Source: a virus. Taken from it: a stretch of 6,712 nucleotides of DNA. The notes under the pieces are model-generated. The model worked only from the letters and a program-made list of their open reading frames with translations. It had not been told where the DNA came from and did not search any database. The stretch spans positions 1-6,712 of the IMG/VR virus record IMGVR_UViG_3300029783_000068, one strand, 5' to 3'. Made by a program: the position numbers and the translations under genes. Shown one piece after another: positions 525-6,712 of the stretch. How positions within the stretch are numbered: the first letter of the stretch is position 1; each line of letters opens with the position of its first letter.

Positions 525-568
525 ATCTACTCGATTAACATTTTTATATGTTATTTAACATTATATTC

Positions 569-599
569 TTTGGAATTGCATAATAAAATGCTATCTTTG
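569..599 (+). promoter_or_regulatory. candidate Bacteroidetes-type sigma-A promoter: -33 TTTG (569-572), 19-nt spacer, -7 TAtcTTTG (592-599), about 24 nt upstream of ATG 623
   Basis: Exact match to the TTTG...TAnnTTTG consensus, as I recall it for Bacteroides promoters, with canonical spacing. The surrounding DNA is AT-rich, so a chance match is possible. Confidence 0.4.
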
Positions 600-622
600 T
601 AATGTAATCAAAAACAAAGGAT

Positions 623-898
623 ATGAAAACAAACAAATTATTTCGGGTTAATTTTGAGAAAGCTAATGCTATTTATTCAGTTTTTAAAACTTGTAATGTT
701 TTTACAATATTGTTGGATGGCACTTTGCTTCCTGTCTATGATTTTAGTGGTAATAACTTTCGTTCGTCTTTGAATAGTCTTCGCAAGTATTATCCTGACT
801 CTGTAGTTAGGTATCATTTTGAGTCTTCTTTTTATGATCAGAATACTTTACCTACTCCTTTTCATTTAACTTATTCTGATTGTATTCTGTTCTTTTAG
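623..898 (+). CDS. hypothetical protein, 91 aa
   Basis: ORF with strong T bias at third codon positions like the confirmed genes. Same strand as all other genes. Preceded by AAAGGA and the candidate promoter, followed by a GC hairpin. No recognisable motif. Confidence 0.45.
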   Translation: MKTNKLFRVNFEKANAIYSVFKTCNVFTILLDGTLLPVYDFSGNNFRSSLNSLRKYYPDSVVRYHFESSFYDQNTLPTPFHLTYSDCILFF

Positions 899-915
899 GG
901 CTGTTTTTACAGCCC
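898..915 (+). terminator. GC-rich hairpin GGGCTGT-tttt-ACAGCCC (7-bp stem) overlapping the stop of ORF 623-898, followed by TTTAA; weak terminator-like structure
   Basis: 898-904 is the reverse complement of 909-915. Only 3 T follow, so not a canonical intrinsic terminator. Confidence 0.3.
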
Positions 916-957
916 TTTAACACTGTCCGTAGGACACCATTAACGCAGTGAGAGCGC

Positions 958-970
958 CGGACGAAGTCCG
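958..970 (+). other. mini-hairpin CGGAC-GAA-GTCCG (5-bp stem, C-GAA-G triloop)
   Basis: 958-962 is the reverse complement of 966-970. Confidence 0.55.
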
Positions 971-983
971 TGTCGCGGAATCG

Positions 984-994
984 CGTAAACATCC
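984..994 (+). repeat. 11-nt direct repeat CGTAAACATCC, copy 1 (copy 2 at 1083-1093, 99 nt away); both copies lie just 3' of a GAA-triloop hairpin beginning ACGAAGT
   Basis: Exact 11/11 identity read from the sequence. Chance expectation in a 460-nt region is about 0.03. Confidence 0.6.
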
Positions 995-1066
995 TAGCGC
1001 CCTTGAGAATAGTTCCTACTCTTGCGGCGCTCTTTCCCTTGCTTTGTGTTAACCACGTCTCACGCC

Positions 1067-1081
1067 GTCAACGAAGTTGAC
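1067..1081 (+). other. mini-hairpin GTCAAC-GAA-GTTGAC (6-bp stem, C-GAA-G triloop)
   Basis: 1067-1072 is the reverse complement of 1076-1081. Confidence 0.55.
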
Positions 1082-1082
1082 C

Positions 1083-1093
1083 CGTAAACATCC
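1083..1093 (+). repeat. 11-nt direct repeat CGTAAACATCC, copy 2
   Basis: Identical to 984-994. Confidence 0.6.
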
Positions 1094-1128
1094 ATTACGT
1101 CATGTTCAGTCACGTTAGGTTTCGTGTA

Positions 1129-1146
1129 GGGCGCGATGCTGCGCCC
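1129..1146 (+). other. hairpin GGGCGC-gatgct-GCGCCC (6-bp all-GC stem)
   Basis: 1129-1134 is the reverse complement of 1141-1146. Confidence 0.5.
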
Positions 1147-1151
1147 GGAAC

Positions 1152-1164
1152 AGACCGAAGGTCT
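1152..1164 (+). other. mini-hairpin AGACC-GAA-GGTCT (5-bp stem, C-GAA-G triloop)
   Basis: 1152-1156 is the reverse complement of 1160-1164. Confidence 0.55.
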
Positions 1165-1176
1165 ACAAGCGGAGCG

Positions 1177-1191
1177 CCGACCACAGGTCGG
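1177..1191 (+). other. hairpin CCGACC-aca-GGTCGG (6-bp stem, 3-nt loop)
   Basis: 1177-1182 is the reverse complement of 1186-1191. Confidence 0.5.
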
Positions 1192-1226
1192 ATAACAAAA
1201 AACAAAAGGAATAAGAAAGGAATTTA

Positions 1227-1242
1227 GGCTTCCTTAGAAGCC
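1227..1242 (+). other. hairpin GGCTTC-ctta-GAAGCC (6-bp stem), downstream of the purine-rich tandem AAAGGAAT x2 (1205-1223)
   Basis: 1227-1232 is the reverse complement of 1237-1242. Confidence 0.45.
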
Positions 1243-1299
1243 GTTAAGAATTTCTTTATTGTTCCGGTCCGAAGGATTTGTTGTCCTTTAAACGTTGTT

Positions 1300-1308
1300 T
1301 GGCGAAGC
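1300..1308 (+). other. canonical d(GCGAAGC)-type mini-hairpin, GGC-GAA-GCC
   Basis: The sequence GGCGAAGCC contains the GCGAAGC heptamer, known to form an extraordinarily stable DNA mini-hairpin. Confidence 0.5.
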
Positions 1309-1353
1309 CGCGTACATGGAGAATTTAGCGTAGCCTACACTTTTGCCCGAAGG

Positions 1354-1378
1354 GAATCGATGTCACCTTCATCGATTC
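1354..1378 (+). other. 9-bp stem / 7-nt loop hairpin GAATCGATG-tcacctt-CATCGATTC at the boundary between the GC-rich hairpin region and the AT-rich tract 1380-1547; candidate origin-type stem-loop
   Basis: 1354-1362 is the reverse complement of 1370-1378. Each arm contains a palindromic ATCGAT. Confidence 0.45.
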
Positions 1379-1379
1379 A

Positions 1380-1547
1380 ACTCTCTCGTCCTTACTATGC
1401 AAAAGTGACACCTATCCTACTGAATTTGAAGAATTTATTAAATTTTATTTCCTATAGAAATTATCTATACATTTTTCTGTTCATTTATTTTGTATATTAC
1501 CTTTTAGTTTTTATTATTGCATTGTTATTCATCAAAATAATTGTACT
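1380..1547 (+). promoter_or_regulatory. AT-rich non-coding tract upstream of the small ORF and Rep operon; probable promoter and/or DNA-unwinding region (no exact consensus promoter located)
   Basis: Very AT-rich. The only ORF over it (1360-1566) is low-complexity and lacks the T3 codon bias. Near-matches to TAnnTTTG occur (e.g. around 1486-1492) but none is exact. Confidence 0.3.
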
Positions 1548-1752: not shown

Positions 1753-3354
1753 ATGGATACCGCAGAGTTCGTCAATAAGTTTTACACTGAATGTCAACAC
1801 AAACGTGAAGTTATTAACCCCTATACTGGTGATATTATTCTCGTTCCCTGTGGTGTCTGTGATGCTTGTAAGGTTTCTAAGTCTGTTCTTGCTGAAAATC
1901 GTATTTATGCTCAGAAGTCTGTTTCGAAACATTGCTATTTTGTTAGTCTCACTTATAAAAATGAGTTTGTCCCTTATTATGAAGTTGAGACTCAGGAGAT
2001 CGATGAAGATAATATTGCTGTTCATGCTTTTGTTCGTCCTCGTCGTAGGCTTACTCGTACTTTCACTTTTCATGGTATTAAGCACGTTCGGCCTGTTCTC
2101 GGTTTAGCGATGGATCAGCAGTTTGACTTTGATTTTTCTTGTAAGAAAGAATATTGGAATCGTTATGCTCTCCAGGCAGATTTGTCTTTTAAAGGAAAGT
2201 ACCCTCAGTATGCCGGTCGTTATGGTTTTCTTTGTCATAAGGACTTGTCTTTATTTATGAAACGTGTACGTAAGCAGATCTTGCTTCGTGATTTAAATCC
2301 TGACCATGAAAAATTACATACATACATTGTGGGAGAGTACGGACCCGTCTCTTTCCGCCCGCATTTCCATATCTTATTTTTCTTTGACTCCGACAAACTC
2401 GCCAAGAATTTTATCCGAGTTGTTAATTCATGCTGGAAATTTGGACGTGTCGATTGCTCTACGTCCAGAGGAAAGGCTGAGTCGTACGTTGCGGGATATC
2501 TTAATAGCTTTACATCTCTTCCCCTACATTTCAAAGAAAATCGCTGCATTCGTCCTTTTGCACGATTCTCTAACCGCTTTGGATTTCAGTTCTTTTCATC
2601 TTCCATTGAAGAAAGTAGGAAAGGAGACTTTTCTAAACTCCTTGATGGAATCAGCGTGCCGGTCAATGGCAAGTATAGAGTTATTCGGCCATGGAGCTCG
2701 ATTATCGATACCTGCTTTTTTCGACCCGTCGCACATAGCCGTCGTACTGTATCTGAATATGTTGAGATATTACGACTTGCTCGGAATATCTGCCAGCGGC
2801 CAGCCTACTGGAAATCATCCATCTTCCAGATACCCAGGCTAATTTATTGGCATTACTACTCGTCTGACCGACAAAGCCAGACAGTGAAAGAGTTGTCTGA
2901 AGATTCTGTCATGACTGATATTATGCAGTTTCTTCATATCGATCCTACCCGAGGCGCTCTTGGTGATGAGTTTTTTGAGCGTTCTTTTTGTAGCCGTTTT
3001 TATATATTTTTTCGGCATTGTGAGAGTTTTCTGTCTTCGATGGGATTCTCCCTTTTCTCTCCGCGAGTAGATTATAATAGGATCCATTCCGCGATTAAGT
3101 TATCTAAAGAGTTTTTTGATGTCAGAGAAAAACAAAGCCTCCAAAATCTTTTTTCAGATTCTCAGTCTTTTGAAAGCGATTGGTCGGATATTTTTTGGAA
3201 TCAAACCGAAGAAAGACAAAGAGAATTTGCAGAGTCCGGATTAGGCTCTATGTGTCGTTCCAAACTTTCTGCTCTTGTACATTCGAAGGTGAAGCATCGG
3301 CACTTGAATGATATGAATAATTTTTTCACGGAGAGAGCTAATTATAATGTCTAG
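1753..3354 (+). CDS. VP4: rolling-circle replication initiation protein (Microviridae VP4 / gpA-like, HUH endonuclease superfamily), 533 aa from ATG 1753 (ORF opens at 1684)
   Basis: Motif I FVSLTY is at 1939-1956 and motif II HFHILFF (HUH) at 2362-2382. Motif III, with two catalytic tyrosines, reads YVAGY at 2485-2499, compared with phiX174 gpA YVAKY. There is an N-terminal Cys cluster C-x18-C-x2-C-x2-C. The conserved-looking N-terminus starts at MDTAEF. Confidence 0.9.
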   Translation: MDTAEFVNKFYTECQHKREVINPYTGDIILVPCGVCDACKVSKSVLAENRIYAQKSVSKHCYFVSLTYKNEFVPYYEVETQEIDEDNIAVHAFVRPRRRLTRTFTFHGIKHVRPVLGLAMDQQFDFDFSCKKEYWNRYALQADLSFKGKYPQYAGRYGFLCHKDLSLFMKRVRKQILLRDLNPDHEKLHTYIVGEYGPVSFRPHFHILFFFDSDKLAKNFIRVVNSCWKFGRVDCSTSRGKAESYVAGYLNSFTSLPLHFKENRCIRPFARFSNRFGFQFFSSSIEESRKGDFSKLLDGISVPVNGKYRVIRPWSSIIDTCFFRPVAHSRRTVSEYVEILRLARNICQRPAYWKSSIFQIPRLIYWHYYSSDRQSQTVKELSEDSVMTDIMQFLHIDPTRGALGDEFFERSFCSRFYIFFRHCESFLSSMGFSLFSPRVDYNRIHSAIKLSKEFFDVREKQSLQNLFSDSQSFESDWSDIFWNQTEERQREFAESGLGSMCRSKLSALVHSKVKHRHLNDMNNFFTERANYNV

Positions 3355-3568
3355 TCGTCGTCCTTACAAGGCGTATTTGTATCAGTCTTCCAATATGCTG
3401 GAAGATAATCAGTTTTATCTCGTGACTGAGATTTATTTGAATGCTCGGTCTTTCGTGGAATTTTCTCATAAGGTTTCAAAACTGAATCAGATCCTTTCGG
3501 ATTCTCATTATGCAGAATCTTTTTATTCTGTTGTTAACCTTGGCGATATTTATTATCGCGAAATTTAA
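3347..3568 (+). CDS. hypothetical small protein, 73 aa, basic N-terminus (MSSRRPYKAY); its start overlaps the Rep stop (ATGTCTAG)
   Basis: T-rich third codon positions. An 8-nt overlap with the rep stop suggests translational coupling. Sits between rep and VP1. A DNA-binding (J/VP8-like) role is speculative. Confidence 0.45.
   Translation: MSSRRPYKAYLYQSSNMLEDNQFYLVTEIYLNARSFVEFSHKVSKLNQILSDSHYAESFYSVVNLGDIYYREI
3543..3559 (+). other. hairpin GCGATA-tttat-TATCGC 14 nt upstream of the VP1 start codon
   Basis: 3543-3548 is the reverse complement of 3554-3559. Could modulate VP1 translation or be incidental. Confidence 0.3.
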
Positions 3569-3572
3569 TTTT

Positions 3573-5438
3573 ATGGCTTCAAACTTATTTTCTTTTGGAG
3601 ATGTTCGGAATCACCCTCACAGGTCCGGTTTCGATCTTTCTCGTCGTATCTGTTTCACCAGCAAGGCTGGTGAACTTTTGCCAGTTTATTATAAACTGGT
3701 TTATCCAGGTGACAAATTTCAGATTCGTCATCAGTTGTTTACTCGTACTCAACCCGTTAATACAGCTGCGTATACTCGTATCCGTGAATATTTGGACTGG
3801 TATTTTGTTCCGTTGCGTTTGATTAATAAGAACCTTCCTCAGGCTCTTATGAATATGCAGGATAATCCGGTTCAGGCATCAGGCATTAACGCTAATAAGA
3901 TTATTACAAATGATATTCCTTATTTTGTTCTTTCTGGTTCTACTGTGTCCCTTGCTGATCTTTTAACAATTATGTATGGTTCTAAAAAGGACGGATCTGC
4001 TGCTGTTTTGAATTTTTTTGGTTTTAATACTGCCTCTCTTTCTGCAAAGTTACTTATGATGCTTCGTTATGGTAATTTTGTTAGTGATATTGTAGATGCT
4101 AATCTTTATGGAAATTCTTTTGGATTGAGTTCTGATCCTAATTTTTCTTTGCGTGCTTATAATAGTAGTTATGCTTTAAACATTTTGCCTCTTGCGGCTT
4201 ATCAGAAGATTTATGCAGATCATTTTAGGTTTTCTCAATGGGAGAAGAATGAGCCTTATACGTACAATTTTGATTGGTATTCAGGTGGTAATGTTTTTGC
4301 TTCTATTGGGCTTAATCAAGTTCGTGAGTATATCGAGAAAAATAATCTTTTAACTCTTCGTTATGCTAATTGGCCGAAAGACCTTTTTATGGGTGTTATG
4401 CCTAATTCCCAGTTAGGTGATGTTTCTGTTGTGGATATTTTACCTACATCCTCTGCTTCGCCTAATCTCATTGGTGATGTTGTTGGTGTTACTGTTGACA
4501 ATGTCAATGCTACCGGATTGATAGCCATGAATGGTACTACTGAGCCCGGAGTGTTTAATATGAGGCCTGCTCGTACGCCTCAGACTGATGCTGTTTTGAG
4601 AGCTGTTATTTCTAATCCTTCTCTTCAGGCTTCTTTTTCTGTTCTTCAGCTTCGTATGGCTGAAGCTGTTCAGCGTTACCGCGAAGTTTCTCAGGTTGCT
4701 GATCAGACTGCCCGCGATCAGATTTATGCGCATTTTGGTGTAAGTTTGTCTCCTGCTTTGTCTGATACTTGTTTCCGCATTGGAGGTTCTGCTTCTAATA
4801 TCGATATTTCTGAGGTAGTCAATACTTTTTTGGGTCCTGATACAGAAACTGAAGCTAATATTAAAGGTAAAGGTGTTGGTACTGGTCAAGGTGGAACTTC
4901 TTTTTCTTCTGACGAATATGGTATTTTGATGGCTATTTATCATATTGTTCCTCTTTTGGATTATGTGATTACTGGTCAGCCTCAGGATCTTTTGTACACT
5001 AATACTGCTGATCTTCCTTTTCCGGAGTTTGATAGTATTGGCATGCAGTCACTTCATTTTGGTCGGTTTTTTAATTACAAGACCGCTGCATTTACCTCTG
5101 ATCCTACAGGTTCGGTTATGGGTTATACTCCGCGTTTTATCGATTTAAAGACTGACTATGATGAGGTATACGGAGCTTTCCGTTCTACTTTAAAATCTTG
5201 GGTTGCTCCGCTTGATCCTACGTATCTTTCTAAATGGGTATCTTCTACCATTCTCCCTGGTGAATCTACTCCTGTTTATTCGTTGAATTATGGTTTCTTT
5301 AAAGTGAATCCGTCTGTTTTGGATAGTATTTTTAGACTTAAGGCTGATAGTTCGATGGATACTGATCAGTTCTTGAGTTCTCTTTATCTGGATGTCAAGG
5401 CTGTCCGGAATTTCGACTATGATGGTATGCCTTATTAA
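3573..5438 (+). CDS. VP1: major capsid protein (Microviridae VP1 / F-like), 621 aa from ATG 3573 (ORF opens at 3510)
   Basis: N-terminus MASNLFSFGDVRNHPHRSGFDLS...LPGDKF...REYLDWYFVPLRL matches the conserved Microviridae VP1 N-terminal jelly-roll region. Size is typical. Strong T3 codon bias. Stop TAA at 5436-5438. Confidence 0.92.
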   Translation: MASNLFSFGDVRNHPHRSGFDLSRRICFTSKAGELLPVYYKLVYPGDKFQIRHQLFTRTQPVNTAAYTRIREYLDWYFVPLRLINKNLPQALMNMQDNPVQASGINANKIITNDIPYFVLSGSTVSLADLLTIMYGSKKDGSAAVLNFFGFNTASLSAKLLMMLRYGNFVSDIVDANLYGNSFGLSSDPNFSLRAYNSSYALNILPLAAYQKIYADHFRFSQWEKNEPYTYNFDWYSGGNVFASIGLNQVREYIEKNNLLTLRYANWPKDLFMGVMPNSQLGDVSVVDILPTSSASPNLIGDVVGVTVDNVNATGLIAMNGTTEPGVFNMRPARTPQTDAVLRAVISNPSLQASFSVLQLRMAEAVQRYREVSQVADQTARDQIYAHFGVSLSPALSDTCFRIGGSASNIDISEVVNTFLGPDTETEANIKGKGVGTGQGGTSFSSDEYGILMAIYHIVPLLDYVITGQPQDLLYTNTADLPFPEFDSIGMQSLHFGRFFNYKTAAFTSDPTGSVMGYTPRFIDLKTDYDEVYGAFRSTLKSWVAPLDPTYLSKWVSSTILPGESTPVYSLNYGFFKVNPSVLDSIFRLKADSSMDTDQFLSSLYLDVKAVRNFDYDGMPY

Positions 5439-5449
5439 ATGTGTTTGTT

Positions 5450-5860
5450 ATGAGTAAAAGTGAAACTTTTGTTATTTCTGGAATGTCTTCAGCTATTGCT
5501 GTTGTTGTTCAACCTATAGAGTCTCTTCGGTTTTATACTGATGAAGATGGTTGTGTTCACATGAATTCTGACGTCAATTTGCTTATGAATGCTGAGCGCA
5601 TTCGCAATCAGATTGGTGAAGAGAATTATTTGAATATTGTTCGTTCTATTCAGCCTTCTCGATCTCCTTATAAGCAAAAGTTGGATGATGATGCATTGAT
5701 TTCTACTTTGAAGTCTCGTTATCTTCAGTCTCCTGCCGAAGTTGATGCTTGGATGGCTGGTCTTGATCAGAAGTATGAGGATATGGTTGCTGAGGTTAAA
5801 GCGGCTGCTATTGCTTCTCAGGTTCCTGATGATTCTCAACCTGTTCAGTCTACTGAATAA
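5450..5860 (+). CDS. putative internal scaffolding protein (VP3-like), 136 aa from ATG 5450 (alternative GTG 5441), acidic
   Basis: Lies between VP1 and VP2 as in gokushoviruses. Size is about that of VP3, with an acidic C-terminal half. Its stop overlaps the VP2 start (TAATG). The functional assignment rests on position and size only. Confidence 0.55.
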   Translation: MSKSETFVISGMSSAIAVVVQPIESLRFYTDEDGCVHMNSDVNLLMNAERIRNQIGEENYLNIVRSIQPSRSPYKQKLDDDALISTLKSRYLQSPAEVDAWMAGLDQKYEDMVAEVKAAAIASQVPDDSQPVQSTE

Positions 5861-6712
5861 TGGGCCCGCTTGTTGGTGCCGCACTTATTAAAGGTGGTTC
5901 CGGACTTCTTGGTTCTGTTTTTAATGGCAGCATGAATAAGCGTGCTGCCAAGGCTTATAACAAAGGTCAGAAGGAGATTGCCCAGATGAACAATCAATGG
6001 AATGCCGAACAGGCAGCCATTAATCGTGAGTGGCAGACCTCTGAACGTGATGCTCAGAACCAGTGGAATTTGGATCAGTGGAATCGTGAAAACGAATATA
6101 ATTCTCCGGCCGCGCAGCGTGCCCGCCTTGAAGAGGCCGGATATAATCCTTACATGAATGGACTTGATGGTAATACAGCAGGTACTGGTGTTACTTCTGC
6201 CGGTGTTTCCGGTGTAGGTAATCCTACCGCCGAAATGCCTAATCAGGTTCCTGCTGCTTTCAATATGGATTTCAGTTCTATTGGCGATGCTATTAATTCT
6301 TACTATCAGAATCAGCTTTTAGCTAATCAGGCTAAAGGACAGGATATTCAAAATACTTTTGATCTTCAGTTCGGCAGTGATTTTCGCAAAGCTCAGATAG
6401 CAAGTTTGATTGATGGTCGTTATGAGTTCTTGAACCCTTCTTACAGAAATCTTCGTGATCTTTATGCGCCTCAGCAGGCTGTTACGGATTTAAGTAAGTC
6501 CCGTCAGGAACTTGCAGGTCTTCGTACCCAGACTCAGCTTACAGCTGCTCAGGCTTTTCTTACTGGTTTACAAGGTAAAGCACAGGAGATTATGAATAAG
6601 TATTTGCCTGCTCAGCAACAGATGCAGCTTTATTCGTATTCCGCTAATTTGTTTTCTCAGTATGCGCAAGGTTTGTTGTCTTTGGCTACCATTAAGAATC
6701 GATTGGCAGAAT
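5860..6712 (+). CDS. VP2: minor capsid / DNA pilot protein (VP2/H-like), N-terminal part; truncated by the window end and continues at 1..497
   Basis: ATG 5860 overlaps the TAA of the upstream gene. The product begins with a Gly-rich N-terminus MGPLVGAALIKGGSGLLGSVFNG, followed by the Microviridae VP2 motif region ...AQRARLEEAGYNPYM. The ORF track shows no stop because the frame is open to the window end. Confidence 0.85.
   Translation, partial: MGPLVGAALIKGGSGLLGSVFNGSMNKRAAKAYNKGQKEIAQMNNQWNAEQAAINREWQTSERDAQNQWNLDQWNRENEYNSPAAQRARLEEAGYNPYMNGLDGNTAGTGVTSAGVSGVGNPTAEMPNQVPAAFNMDFSSIGDAINSYYQNQLLANQAKGQDIQNTFDLQFGSDFRKAQIASLIDGRYEFLNPSYRNLRDLYAPQQAVTDLSKSRQELAGLRTQTQLTAAQAFLTGLQGKAQEIMNKYLPAQQQMQLYSYSANLFSQYAQGLLSLATIKNRLAE
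6614..6712. repeat. 99-nt terminal redundancy of the window (identical to 1-99), reflecting a circular 6613-nt genome
   Basis: Exact 99/99 identity. The VP2 frame is continuous across the junction. Confidence 0.95.

Follow-up and report, generated by a model that had tools for sequence, protein, structure and literature searches.

The two copies of the 10-mer GTAAACATCC located upstream of the Rep gene in this gut microvirus are genuine and conserved components of a non-coding stretch that is highly folded and had not been described before. The window, which designates the whole stretch of 6,712 nucleotides that was analysed, corresponds to a circular microvirus genome that is complete at 6,613 nt. 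We favour, with a probability of roughly 45%, the interpretation that both copies are largely unpaired segments of a multi-helix fold, referred to here as module A, which would belong to a single-stranded DNA (ssDNA) origin-type region where synthesis of the complementary strand starts.

All genes of this genome lie on the + strand. The non-coding region extends over ~650 nt (899-1547) between the pilot-protein gene and the Rep gene, carries neither a conserved ORF nor a match to any ORF family, and is composed of module A, a 230-nt hairpin-rich insert X and module B (Table 1). In relatives, modules A and B are separated by 18, 31, 85, 165 or 243 nt. The folded element is flanked upstream by a terminator-like hairpin (H0), whose stems differ among relatives and which is followed by T6 in some of them, and downstream by a promoter box, and it is situated outside transcription units. 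The presumed promoter box TATCTATACATTTT (1462-1475) has as its counterpart in relatives TATATTTG or TACCTTTG, which is the Bacteroidota -7 motif. The host of the phage is probably a member of the Bacteroidota, for which a scan for sigma-70 promoters and terminators was uninformative. ARAGORN reported neither tRNA nor tmRNA. Conservation counts given below refer to 56 distinct relatives obtained from human, lemur and rodent gut.

Table 1. Features of the non-coding region and their coordinates in the window.
Feature	Position	Strand	Remarks
H0 hairpin, AGGGCTG/CAGCCCT	897-916	+	terminator-like; directly after ORF 623-898
Module A, multi-helix fold of ~180 nt (921-1101)	921-1112	+	contains both motif copies; some lineages only
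P1 mini-hairpin, TGTCC-GTA-GGACA	924-936	+	stem covaries: TGCC/GGCA, TGTGC/GCACA
Helix P2, ACGC (943-946)/GCGT (983-986)	943-986	+	encloses P3 and P3a
Invariant block AGTGAGAG	947-954	+	within P2
Helix P3, GCG (954-956)/CGC (974-976)	954-976	+	covaries to GAG/CTC
P3a mini-hairpin, CGGAC-GAA-GTCCG	958-970	+	terminal on P3; first ACGAAGT hairpin of the original prediction
Invariant block CGGAATC	976-982	+	within P2
Motif copy 1, GTAAACATCC	985-994	+	exact in 53/56 distinct relatives
P4, sequence-variable hairpin	1005-1021	+	pair 1006-1020 AT in 47, GC in 4
Helix P5, GGC (1026-1028)/GCC (1064-1066)	1026-1066	+	two compensatory pairs, in bajarodmic viruses
P6 mini-hairpin, GTCAAC-GAA-GTTGAC	1067-1081	+	second ACGAAGT hairpin of the original prediction
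P7, candidate hairpin, CGTA/TACG	1083-1086/1096-1099	+	may display copy 2
Motif copy 2, GTAAACATCC	1084-1093	+	GTAAACA 98-100% per column; position 1091 T in ~80%
Insert X, GC-rich hairpin run	1113-1334	+	length variable in relatives
Insert X mini-hairpin, AGACC-GAA-GGTCT	1152-1164	+	
Insert X mini-hairpin, TCC-GAA-GGA	1268-1276	+	
Insert X mini-hairpin, GGC-GAA-GCC	1301-1309	+	
Insert X mini-hairpin, GCGTAGC	1328-1334	+	
Module B, three-way junction of ~80 nt	1335-1411	+	
Module B stem, CACTTTTG/CAAAAGTG	1338-1345/1400-1407	+	
Module B mini-hairpin, CCC-GAA-GGG	1346-1354	+	
Module B hairpin	1355-1377	+	
Module B single-stranded segment	1378-1398	+	contains CTCTCGTCC
Module B invariant GCAAAAGTGACAC	1399-1411	+	
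AT-rich region	1412-1547	+	~25% GC; holds the presumed promoter of the small-ORF and Rep operon
Degenerate GAA hairpin	1422-1436	+	inside the AT-rich region

The repeat had originally been noticed as an exact 11-mer, CGTAAACATCC, and this sequence is indeed present at 984-994 and 1083-1093 on the + strand; a search allowing up to one mismatch found no third copy, either direct or inverted. Because 32% of dinucleotide shuffles of the genome contain two identical 11-mers in direct orientation no more than 150 nt apart, the repeat taken alone is not significant. It is real nonetheless, since both copies and their spacing are conserved: the start-to-start distance remains constant at 98-101 nt over ~70 contigs, and both copies belong to the blocks of highest conservation in the element (identity of 96% or more among the 56 distinct sequences). 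The alignment of related genomes advocated by the original prediction thus bears out that this rolling-circle ssDNA replicon has a conserved motif with conserved spacing. In 18 of the 56 relatives, the 11-mer begins with G instead of C, in covariation with helix P2, and the conserved core is therefore restricted to the 10-mer GTAAACATCC. Within this core, GTAAACA is near-invariant in both copies and the nearby loops and stems are variable. Copy 1 is nearly fixed, and its AAACATCC is unpaired in the covariation-supported model; copy 2 is encountered in the forms ACATCC, ACACCC, ACATCT, ATACCT and ACATCA. The two copies evolve semi-independently.

The fold of module A is documented by compensatory changes. 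Its helices are 99.3% paired, with eight pairs changed on both sides, and its covariation reaches 0.248 versus 0.082 in shuffles (none of 500 attained 0.248) and near zero in slid controls. A separate all-against-all scan, in which G-T noise masked the signal, was limited to Watson-Crick pairs. Pairs 945-984 and 946-983 of P2 undergo a GC to CG swap in 18 of 56 sequences, pair 1071-1077 of P6 alternates between AT (43 sequences) and GC (13 sequences), and the loop of P1 reads GAA in 32 relatives, GTA in 12 and GCA in 8. Support for P5 is weaker than that for P2 and P3, and P7 is uncertain because it displays only G-C to G-T changes and no compensatory change. Two other pairings were discarded. 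The first, proposed by RNAalifold between AGGA (931-934) and the TCCT end of copy 1, was dropped in favour of P1, which has compensatory variants; the second, a long-range helix 951-958/1026-1033, would impose a C-A mismatch at position 1029, which is mostly A, and the perfect covariation partner of C955 is G975. In size and intricacy, module A exceeds the priming signals known so far, and its invariant joining segments are more typical of a ribozyme or riboswitch.

This architecture modifies the picture of a duplicated module in which an ACGAAGT hairpin would be immediately followed by the 11-mer. Both ACGAAGT segments (961-967 and 1071-1077) do belong to GAA-triloop hairpins, but the heptamer itself is not conserved and only the C-GNA-G loop is kept. 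Direct adjacency holds for copy 2, which is 1 nt away from its hairpin, but not for copy 1, which begins 13 nt after hairpin 958-970; this hairpin is absent from bajarodmic viruses 502 and 273, in which the motif is nonetheless kept. The CGT of copy 1 constitutes the 3' strand of P2 and copy 2 comes after hairpin P6. The copies occupy different positions within one covarying fold and do not form a repeated hairpin-plus-motif unit.

The hairpins of the region are mostly of a type known from DNA. C(GNA)G hairpins whose stems reach 3 bp or more number seven in 899-1547, for an expectation of 0.1 and a maximum of 2 among 2,000 shuffles; two others lie elsewhere in the genome and the minus strand has none. 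The middle base of the loop is free, which fits the DNA mini-hairpin consensus GCGNAGC/GCGNNAGC and mostly breaks the RNA GNRA rule. Besides GNA triloops, the loops comprise GATA, GGTA, GTTA and GAAT, and the drawn hairpins have neither GNRA nor UNCG tetraloops. Such DNA mini-hairpins are reported to exceed their RNA counterparts greatly in stability, to be poorly bound by SSB and to occur at the complementary-strand origins of G4, St-1 and alpha3 as well as in RSF1010 ssiA (CCGAAGG) and in the N4 hairpin promoters (PMC13037366). The ssiA-type CCGAAGG is found three times in the present element. In both modules, the wobbles produced by substitutions are of the G-T type when the + strand is considered. 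The fold z-score amounts to -5.2 for DNA, -4.7 for RNA in the + sense and -5.0 for minus-strand RNA, and covariation has no power to separate ssDNA from a same-sense RNA. UUCG tetraloops on a minus-strand RNA were considered and rejected, as complementing C-GAA-G gives a UUC triloop that is not in register with C(UUCG)G, DNA-type mini-hairpins do not occur on that strand and the wobbles would become A-C mismatches.

Module B is 96.4% paired with nine pairs changed on both sides, none of 500 shuffles attains its score, and the loop of its mini-hairpin is GAA, GGA, GTA, GCA, GAAA, GATA, GGTA or GTTA in relatives. It is encountered in all 17 of the VP4 (Rep) relatives with at least ~1 kb of upstream sequence, down to ~30% Rep identity, and a scan of 185,579 species genomes for its pattern gave no match. 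Module B would represent the core component linked to the Rep family, and it is a candidate for the (+)-strand nick site.

The distribution of module A is patchy, and this module is swapped between lineages by recombination, independently of Rep. Segment 529-1112 of the window, comprising ORF 623 and module A, is 96% identical to lineage-2 genomes, the remaining DNA of which is 67-79% identical, with a VP4 protein identity of 48%; the high identity of module A between lineages is due in part to recent recombination and not to selection. The L038 clade is ~70% identical to the window across module A and has kept the motif. Many relatives are devoid of module A, including Rep relatives at ~30% identity that keep module B, and since they still replicate, module A is not essential to the family. 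Moreover, ORF 623 is unrelated to the upstream ORF of bajarodmic virus 502, which indicates that module A does not depend on a single adjacent protein gene.

The preferred interpretation, complementary-strand initiation, draws on the conservation of the element, its fold, strand specificity, DNA-type loops, location outside transcription units and cassette exchange. After entry of the circular ssDNA, the C(GNA)G mini-hairpins would remain folded and free of SSB and would present the adjoining single-stranded motifs to host primase, to a PriA-type primosome or to RNA polymerase, and the host priming machinery would begin the complementary strand at these motifs. Module A would then act as an exchangeable 'single-strand origin' cassette and module B, just downstream, as the core of the Rep family. 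The priming function, the binding factor and this division of roles are put forward as suppositions; the observations do not link the 10-mer specifically to priming and its role as a recognition site is putative. The original prediction had invoked binding sites for either Rep or host priming proteins. The latter possibility is reasonable, given that the motif lies beside stable GAA-loop hairpins in an anatomy resembling known single-strand initiation signals; the former is argued against, as the same motif accompanies 48%-identical Reps and recombines independently of Rep. In rolling-circle plasmids, the single-strand origin (sso) is an exchangeable cassette just upstream of the Rep-specific dso, and the partition described here, in which module A swaps and module B tracks the Rep family, would match this layout.

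The comparison with known systems reveals both similarities and differences. The DnaG-dependent complementary-strand origins of G4, St-1, phiK and alpha3 are likewise found in Microviridae, in a non-coding stretch of the viral strand; they contain several stable hairpins free of SSB, as proposed for the present element, and share with it a candidate start region 3' of a hairpin as well as the mini-hairpin DNA motif, which is GCGAAAGC or GCGTTAGC in G4-type origins (PMC13037366) and takes the form of C(GNA)G and GNNA loops here. However, the present element is larger (300-650 nt with multi-helix junctions versus ~140 nt and three hairpins), lies in the gap between pilot-protein and Rep genes rather than between capsid and spike genes, carries two identical 10-mers and probably functions in a Bacteroidota host. 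A distant blastn against 50,697 phage records disclosed no homology to G4-type origins and matched only six uncultured microviruses (Dulem, bajarodmic and Peromfec).

The ssoA, ssoT, ssoU and ssoW origins of rolling-circle plasmids are likewise strand-specific folded ssDNA exchanged independently of Rep, and module A is positioned just upstream of the Rep-tracking module B, the presumptive dso. In contrast, the present element belongs to a phage and not to a plasmid. Plasmid sso carry conserved RSB and CS-6 (TAGCGT) boxes; a candidate counterpart of CS-6, TAGCGC (TAGCGT in some relatives), follows copy 1 outside any terminal loop. The ssiA and ssiB signals of RSF1010, used by the RepB' primase, have in common with it the CCGAAGG mini-hairpin with flanking single strands and the presence of two similar signals per replicon; the primase reads these flanks and starts a few nt 3' of the hairpin (PMC13037366). 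Each of these signals spans 40 nt and they are carried by opposite strands, whereas the motif copies described here share one strand and one larger fold, and the present genome encodes no RepB'-like primase. The phiX174 complementary-strand origin, with its PriA/n' hairpin overlapping T_F, is likewise an intergenic viral-strand hairpin region beside a terminator; it has no sequence similarity to the present element, and the non-coding DNA of phiX174 totals 217 nt compared to the single ~650-nt region found here. Iterons of plasmid and rolling-circle origins, to which the repeat had been likened, are likewise direct repeats of a short sequence in a replication-control region. They consist of at least three tandem or phased repeats of ~17-22 bp, which are equivalent duplex sites and track the cognate Rep. 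Here, only two copies of 10-11 nt exist, 99 nt apart, neither tandem nor phased, mostly single-stranded in the conserved fold and partly paired in different helices, and the motif does not follow Rep; the likeness to iterons was consequently abandoned.

Alternative roles must be considered. It is rather unlikely that the copies are sites for a phage protein, in the sense of iterons or of a (+)-origin, where both GTAAACATCC segments would be recognised by Rep (VP4) or by another, small protein of the phage, which would position rolling-circle nicking or termination, or the switch to packaging. HUH enzymes often read a hairpin together with the single strand located 3' of it, and copy 2 starts 2 nt after hairpin P6. 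The motif is furthermore invariant amid variable flanks, the region is situated just upstream of the Rep operon and next to an AT-rich stretch, and bajarodmic virus 1133 carries GTAAACATCT at both copies. Apart from this case, however, the copies vary independently, there are just two of them, 99 nt apart, and their structural contexts are not equivalent. The motif is identical across 48%-identical Reps, recombines independently of Rep and is absent from Rep relatives retaining module B; in addition, two direct nick sites would be expected to delete the intervening 99 nt during rolling-circle replication.

We regard as unlikely a role as structured RNA, in which transcriptional read-through or an unrecognised promoter would generate a non-coding RNA or a 5' leader of the Rep operon, with the 10-mers contacting a protein or another RNA. 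The element was searched against Rfam 15 in the window and four relatives without any match at E-values up to 1. The C(GNA)G triloops and GNNA loops are mostly outside the GNRA rule, RNA versions of such hairpins are much less stable (PMC13037366), and the element lies downstream of the terminator-like hairpin and precedes the promoter box that serves the following operon. An RNA would be compatible with the orientation of the element, which is that of all genes, with the significant z-score of -4.7 for the RNA fold, with the multi-helix junction, its invariant joining strands and G-U-compatible changes, and with H0, whose short T run in the window would make read-through possible.

A chance duplication inside a functional fold, which would render the identity of the two 10-mers meaningless in itself, is improbable: GTAAACA is conserved at 98-100% per column in both copies over 56 sequences, L038 clade included, and the spacing is constant at 98-101 nt, even though a nearby exact 11-mer repeat occurs in 32% of shuffled genomes and copy 2 drifts where copy 1 does not. 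An integration or recombination site, either a CTX-phi-like ssDNA attP or a dif-like XerC/D site, would agree with the dif-like att sites reported upstream of Rep in proviruses of Bacteroidetes-associated microviruses (Krupovic and Forterre 2011) and with the module A boundary (~1112) being a recombination breakpoint between lineages, but it is highly improbable as a scan for the dif core found no match within three mismatches, the helices, at 3-9 bp, lack the length needed to imitate the 28-bp duplex of dif, none of 185,579 species genomes matches the module B pattern and the sole genomic Rep relative is only 29% identical, so that no provirus of the present clade has been seen.

In a broader perspective, gut microviruses might possess a so far overlooked class of replication-control DNA, large, modular and assembled from GNA mini-hairpins, a generalization that we consider possible but doubtful. 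The universal three-way junction of module B, with its invariant GCAAAAGTGACAC, would then be the long-sought origin of the present Rep family, and swappable cassettes such as module A would show two identical 10-nt sites recruiting host priming enzymes. If this were true, such cassettes would travel horizontally and a phage could gain host-specific priming signals, much as rolling-circle plasmids swap their sso. Microviruses outside the phiX174 and G4 group dominate gut ssDNA viromes. Our literature search retrieved neither a description of the element nor a mapped replication origin for any microvirus outside that group, and module B together with module A and its two exposed 10-mers offer concrete, testable origin candidates. 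The link between mini-hairpins and single-strand initiation would be widened from E. coli phages and plasmids to a group of phages of probable Bacteroidota hosts. Thousands of metagenomic microvirus genomes could be annotated with the covariance-ready alignments; ORFs called over such GC-rich folds are likely spurious and should be treated with caution by annotators.

The first 99 bases of the window recur exactly at 6614-6712, so the genome is circular with a length of 6,613 nt. Every recognisable gene lies on the + strand. Among named records, the genome is nearest to two Dulem viruses of lemur faeces, 265 and 266 (88% identity genome-wide). The repeat motif lies within 649 nt devoid of genes (899-1547), the first 500 nt of which have a GC content of about 52%, versus 25-45% for the genome. 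The modular order of this region was taken from alignments.

Features of the genome and of its non-coding region, in window coordinates
Feature	Position	Remarks
Hairpin past VP2	502-524	perfect, 10 bp
Small ORFs	623-898; 1548-1742; 3347-3568; 5450-5860	+ strand
H0	897-916	terminator-like hairpin
Module A	921-1112	
P2	943-946 with 983-986	two pairs exchange GC and CG in 18 of 56 sequences
P3	954-956 with 974-976	GCG/CGC or GAG/CTC
P3a	958-970	first hairpin of the original prediction
Copy 1 of the 11-mer	984-994	+ strand
P4	1005-1021	
P5	1026-1028 with 1064-1066	
P6	1067-1081	one pair AT in 43 sequences, GC in 13
Copy 2 of the 11-mer	1083-1093	+ strand
P7	1083-1099	possible hairpin
Conserved blocks	947-954; 976-982; 985-994; 1064-1070; 1078-1090	AGTGAGAG; CGGAATC; GTAAACATCC; GCCGTCA; TGACCCGTAAACA; at least 96% identity, 56 distinct sequences
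Insert X	1113-1334	long form of the A-to-B linker
Module B	1335-1411	
Small GAA hairpin		after module B; degenerate in the window
Module C		about 125 nt, GC-rich, after the small GAA hairpin in many relatives; window without it
AT-rich promoter region		3' end of the layout, followed by a small conserved ORF, then VP4
Rep (VP4)	1753-3354	+ strand; PHROG replication initiation protein, Pfam REP_ORF2-G2P
Major capsid protein VP1	3573-5438	+ strand; Phage_F
DNA pilot protein VP2	5860 round to 497	+ strand; across the circle junction

Among genomes, the linker between modules A and B measures 18, 31, 85, 165 or 243 nt. In pattern scans of IMG/VR and metagenome contigs, the element turned up in about 70 contigs of microvirus size, many of which bear a human gut label. 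Among phage records, the blastn similarity of three bajarodmic viruses (502, 273 and 1133) and of Peromfec virus RodF7_5, from rodent faeces, to the window is essentially confined to the non-coding region, which is the sole megablast match of bajarodmic virus 502. The ORFs upstream of module A are unrelated among the genomes bearing it.

The original prediction had read an 11-nt direct repeat and two hairpins as an iteron-like composite module present twice. The 11-mer CGTAAACATCC does occur as copies 1 and 2, with no further copy on either strand of the window at up to one mismatch, and ACGAAGT is found at 961-967 and 1071-1077, both within GAA-triloop hairpins (P3a and P6). Copy 2 adjoins its hairpin as proposed, but copy 1 starts 13 nt past the first one. 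The repeat by itself is unremarkable: of 300 dinucleotide shuffles of the genome, 32% hold one or more exact direct repeats of 11 nt within 150 nt. Its reality is established by the relatives: nearly all of the approximately 70 contigs hold both motif copies, spaced by 98-101 nt. P3a is missing from two relatives that retain the motif, bajarodmic viruses 502 and 273. As the 10-mer GTAAACATCC, copy 1 is intact in 53 of 56 distinct sequences; the leading C of the 11-mer becomes G in 18 of the 56. The 3' end of copy 2 varies (ACATCC, ACACCC, ACATCT, ATACCT, ACATCA), so concerted change does not keep copies 1 and 2 identical. Directly 3' of copy 1, TAGCGC (995-1000; TAGCGT in loci L071, L092, L124 and L125) is reminiscent of TAGCGT, the CS-6 box found in ssoA-type single-strand origins, which could be a coincidence.

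The duplicated composite module gives way to a single fold, module A, whose helices are supported by covariation. The fold is 99.3% paired in alignment A2, where 8 of its pairs have changed on both sides; its covariation score of 0.248 (0.082 in shuffles) is reached by 0 of 500 shuffles; sliding the partners by 1-3 columns leaves next to no signal. The CGT of copy 1 forms the 3' strand of P2 and is followed by unpaired AAACATCC. Copy 2 comes after P6 and may open P7, a helix which is uncertain because its changes are from G-C to G-T only; pairing of ACG (1062-1064) with CGT (1083-1085) would offer copy 2 an alternative closure mirroring P2.

Module B is a three-way junction composed of a stem CACTTTTG/CAAAAGTG, a mini-hairpin and a 7-8-bp hairpin, along with a single-stranded segment containing CTCTCGTCC and an invariant GCAAAAGTGACAC. 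In alignment A4 this structure is 96.4% paired; 9 of its pairs differ on both sides, and covariation scores 0.365 versus 0.131 in shuffles (reached by 0/500). Module B is the universal core: nhmmer also detects it in microviruses far removed from the window (about 30% identity in VP4) that have no module A. Module A is dispensable for the relatives that lack it. The 12-mer GCAAAAGTGACA is present in 17/17 VP4-relative loci with about 1 kb of upstream sequence and was not found in six loci having less than 900 nt. As GCAAAAGTGACA(C) is invariant (window 1399-1411; loci L136 and L138-L158) down to about 30% Rep identity, it is a candidate for the (+)-strand origin, or the nick region, of this microvirus group. 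The module B pattern has no match in 185,579 species genomes, where neither a provirus of this clade nor a host copy of module B was seen and the sole genomic Rep relative is 29% identical.

The two modules differ in their inheritance. A second lineage (e.g. L026, L029 and L044) shares with the window 48% protein identity in VP4, about 60% in VP1 and about 36% in VP2. At the DNA level these three loci share 93-96% identity with window 529-1112, which spans the promoter, ORF 623, H0 and module A, versus 67-79% outside it and about 80% in module B, and ORF 623 is often just 47-69% identical within the window's own lineage. These contrasts indicate recent inter-lineage recombination, the breakpoint lying at the 3' edge of module A; module A thus passes from one lineage to another uncoupled from Rep. 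Distant copies of module A, such as those of the bajarodmic viruses and of the L038 clade (about 70% identity over A), keep the helices via compensatory changes and retain both motifs, so that helices and motifs are maintained by selection as well as by recent transfer.

C(GNA)G hairpins whose stems reach 3 bp or more occur seven times in the non-coding region and never on the minus strand, against a mean of 0.1 and a maximum of 2 in 2,000 shuffles; the remaining ~6 kb contain two. Among relatives the loop G, the loop A and the closing C-G are fixed and the middle base is free: P1 loops are GAA (32), GTA (12) and GCA (8), P3a loops GAA (45), GTA (6), GGA (2) and AAA (1), and those of the module B mini-hairpin GAA, GGA, GTA, GCA, GAAA, GATA, GGTA or GTTA. 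This pattern is the GCGNAGC/GCGNNAGC mini-hairpin DNA consensus. According to a review by the discoverers (PMC13037366), such DNA binds SSB poorly and its RNA counterparts are much less stable; the review places the motif where primase starts in three complementary-strand origins (G4, St-1 and alpha3), in RSF1010 ssiA (CCGAAGG) and in N4 hairpin promoters. CCGAAGG occurs three times in the window. In distant relatives (L138-L158), twin GCGAAGC-TT-GCGTAGC mini-hairpins lie inside a GC-rich palindrome about 250 nt upstream of VP4, and a TGCGCGGAGCGCA hairpin also recurs upstream of Rep; GNA mini-hairpins thus appear to be a general trait of these phages in the non-coding DNA ahead of Rep.

The data agree with a region of replication control that acts as folded viral-strand DNA, with module A resembling a single-strand origin, a reading to which we assign slightly less than even odds (about 0.45). 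The mini-hairpins would keep SSB off the region, and host priming enzymes would recognise, or start at, the unpaired AAACATCC segments adjoining helices, much as in G4 and ssiA. In rolling-circle plasmids a single-strand origin lies just upstream of the Rep-tied origin. Module A is like these single-strand origins in strand specificity, exchangeability and position just upstream, and module B tracks the Rep family as nick-site origins do; module A is, however, more elaborate than known priming signals. A structured RNA of the same sense is equally compatible with the covariation. Folding energies do not separate the two, being significant with DNA (z = -5.2) and RNA (z = -4.7) parameters alike, but GATA, GGTA and GTTA loops violate the RNA GNRA rule, no GNRA or UNCG tetraloop occurs among the hairpins drawn for the region, and searches against Rfam families, tRNA and tmRNA gave no match. 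Binding sites for a phage protein, Rep or other, were also considered: of the binders originally proposed, host priming proteins are partly vindicated, and Rep iterons are argued against. A meaningless duplicate inside a functional fold, a further rival, has the variable end of copy 2 in its favour and the retention of the two motifs in distant genomes against it. A Xer/dif-type attachment site finds no dif-like core. We rate the element as a probable variant of the signals that ssDNA replicons use for single-strand initiation or as origins; it belongs to no Rfam family, and the literature searched does not describe it. A 650-nt composite is unusual for the family, since the non-coding DNA of phiX174 totals 217 nt and its complementary-strand origin overlaps one terminator hairpin.

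The element begins 5 nt past H0, which is followed by T6 in bajarodmic viruses, and ends upstream of a conserved box, TATATTTG or TACCTTTG in relatives, corresponding to the Bacteroidota -7 promoter motif TAnnTTTG; the window version, TACATTTT, matches at 7/8 positions. An exact TATCTTTG (592-599) lies 24 nt upstream of ORF 623, and TAnnTTTG is found upstream of the Rep operon and downstream of the element in L002, L038 and L138-L158. Shine-Dalgarno sequences are absent before the main genes, and together with the promoter motifs this suggests a Bacteroidota host. The hairpin TCCTCCGGTT-TAC-AACCGGAGGA, directly past the VP2 stop codon, is probably the VP2 terminator. The 64-aa ORF 1548-1742, directly upstream of VP4, is 75-100% identical among the module A-bearing genomes compared, even at 48% VP4 identity; neither Pfam nor PHROG gives a match for it, and by eye the distant group appears to have a counterpart (MKLLMTVQPKNGEKPSDP...). 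The homologue of ORF 623-898 in Dulem virus 265 (L001 344-619) is labelled 'replication initiator protein' in GenBank, a name which looks unfounded because the ORF 623-898 protein is without Pfam or PHROG match. Module C corresponds to L001 907-1040, with equivalents in L016, L017, L015, L025 and others (GGATTC-GAA-GAATCC ... GGACAC-GTA-GTGTCC ... GGTCAC), and the 'hypothetical protein' CDS drawn over it in the Dulem virus 265 record (L001 1000-1353) is probably spurious.
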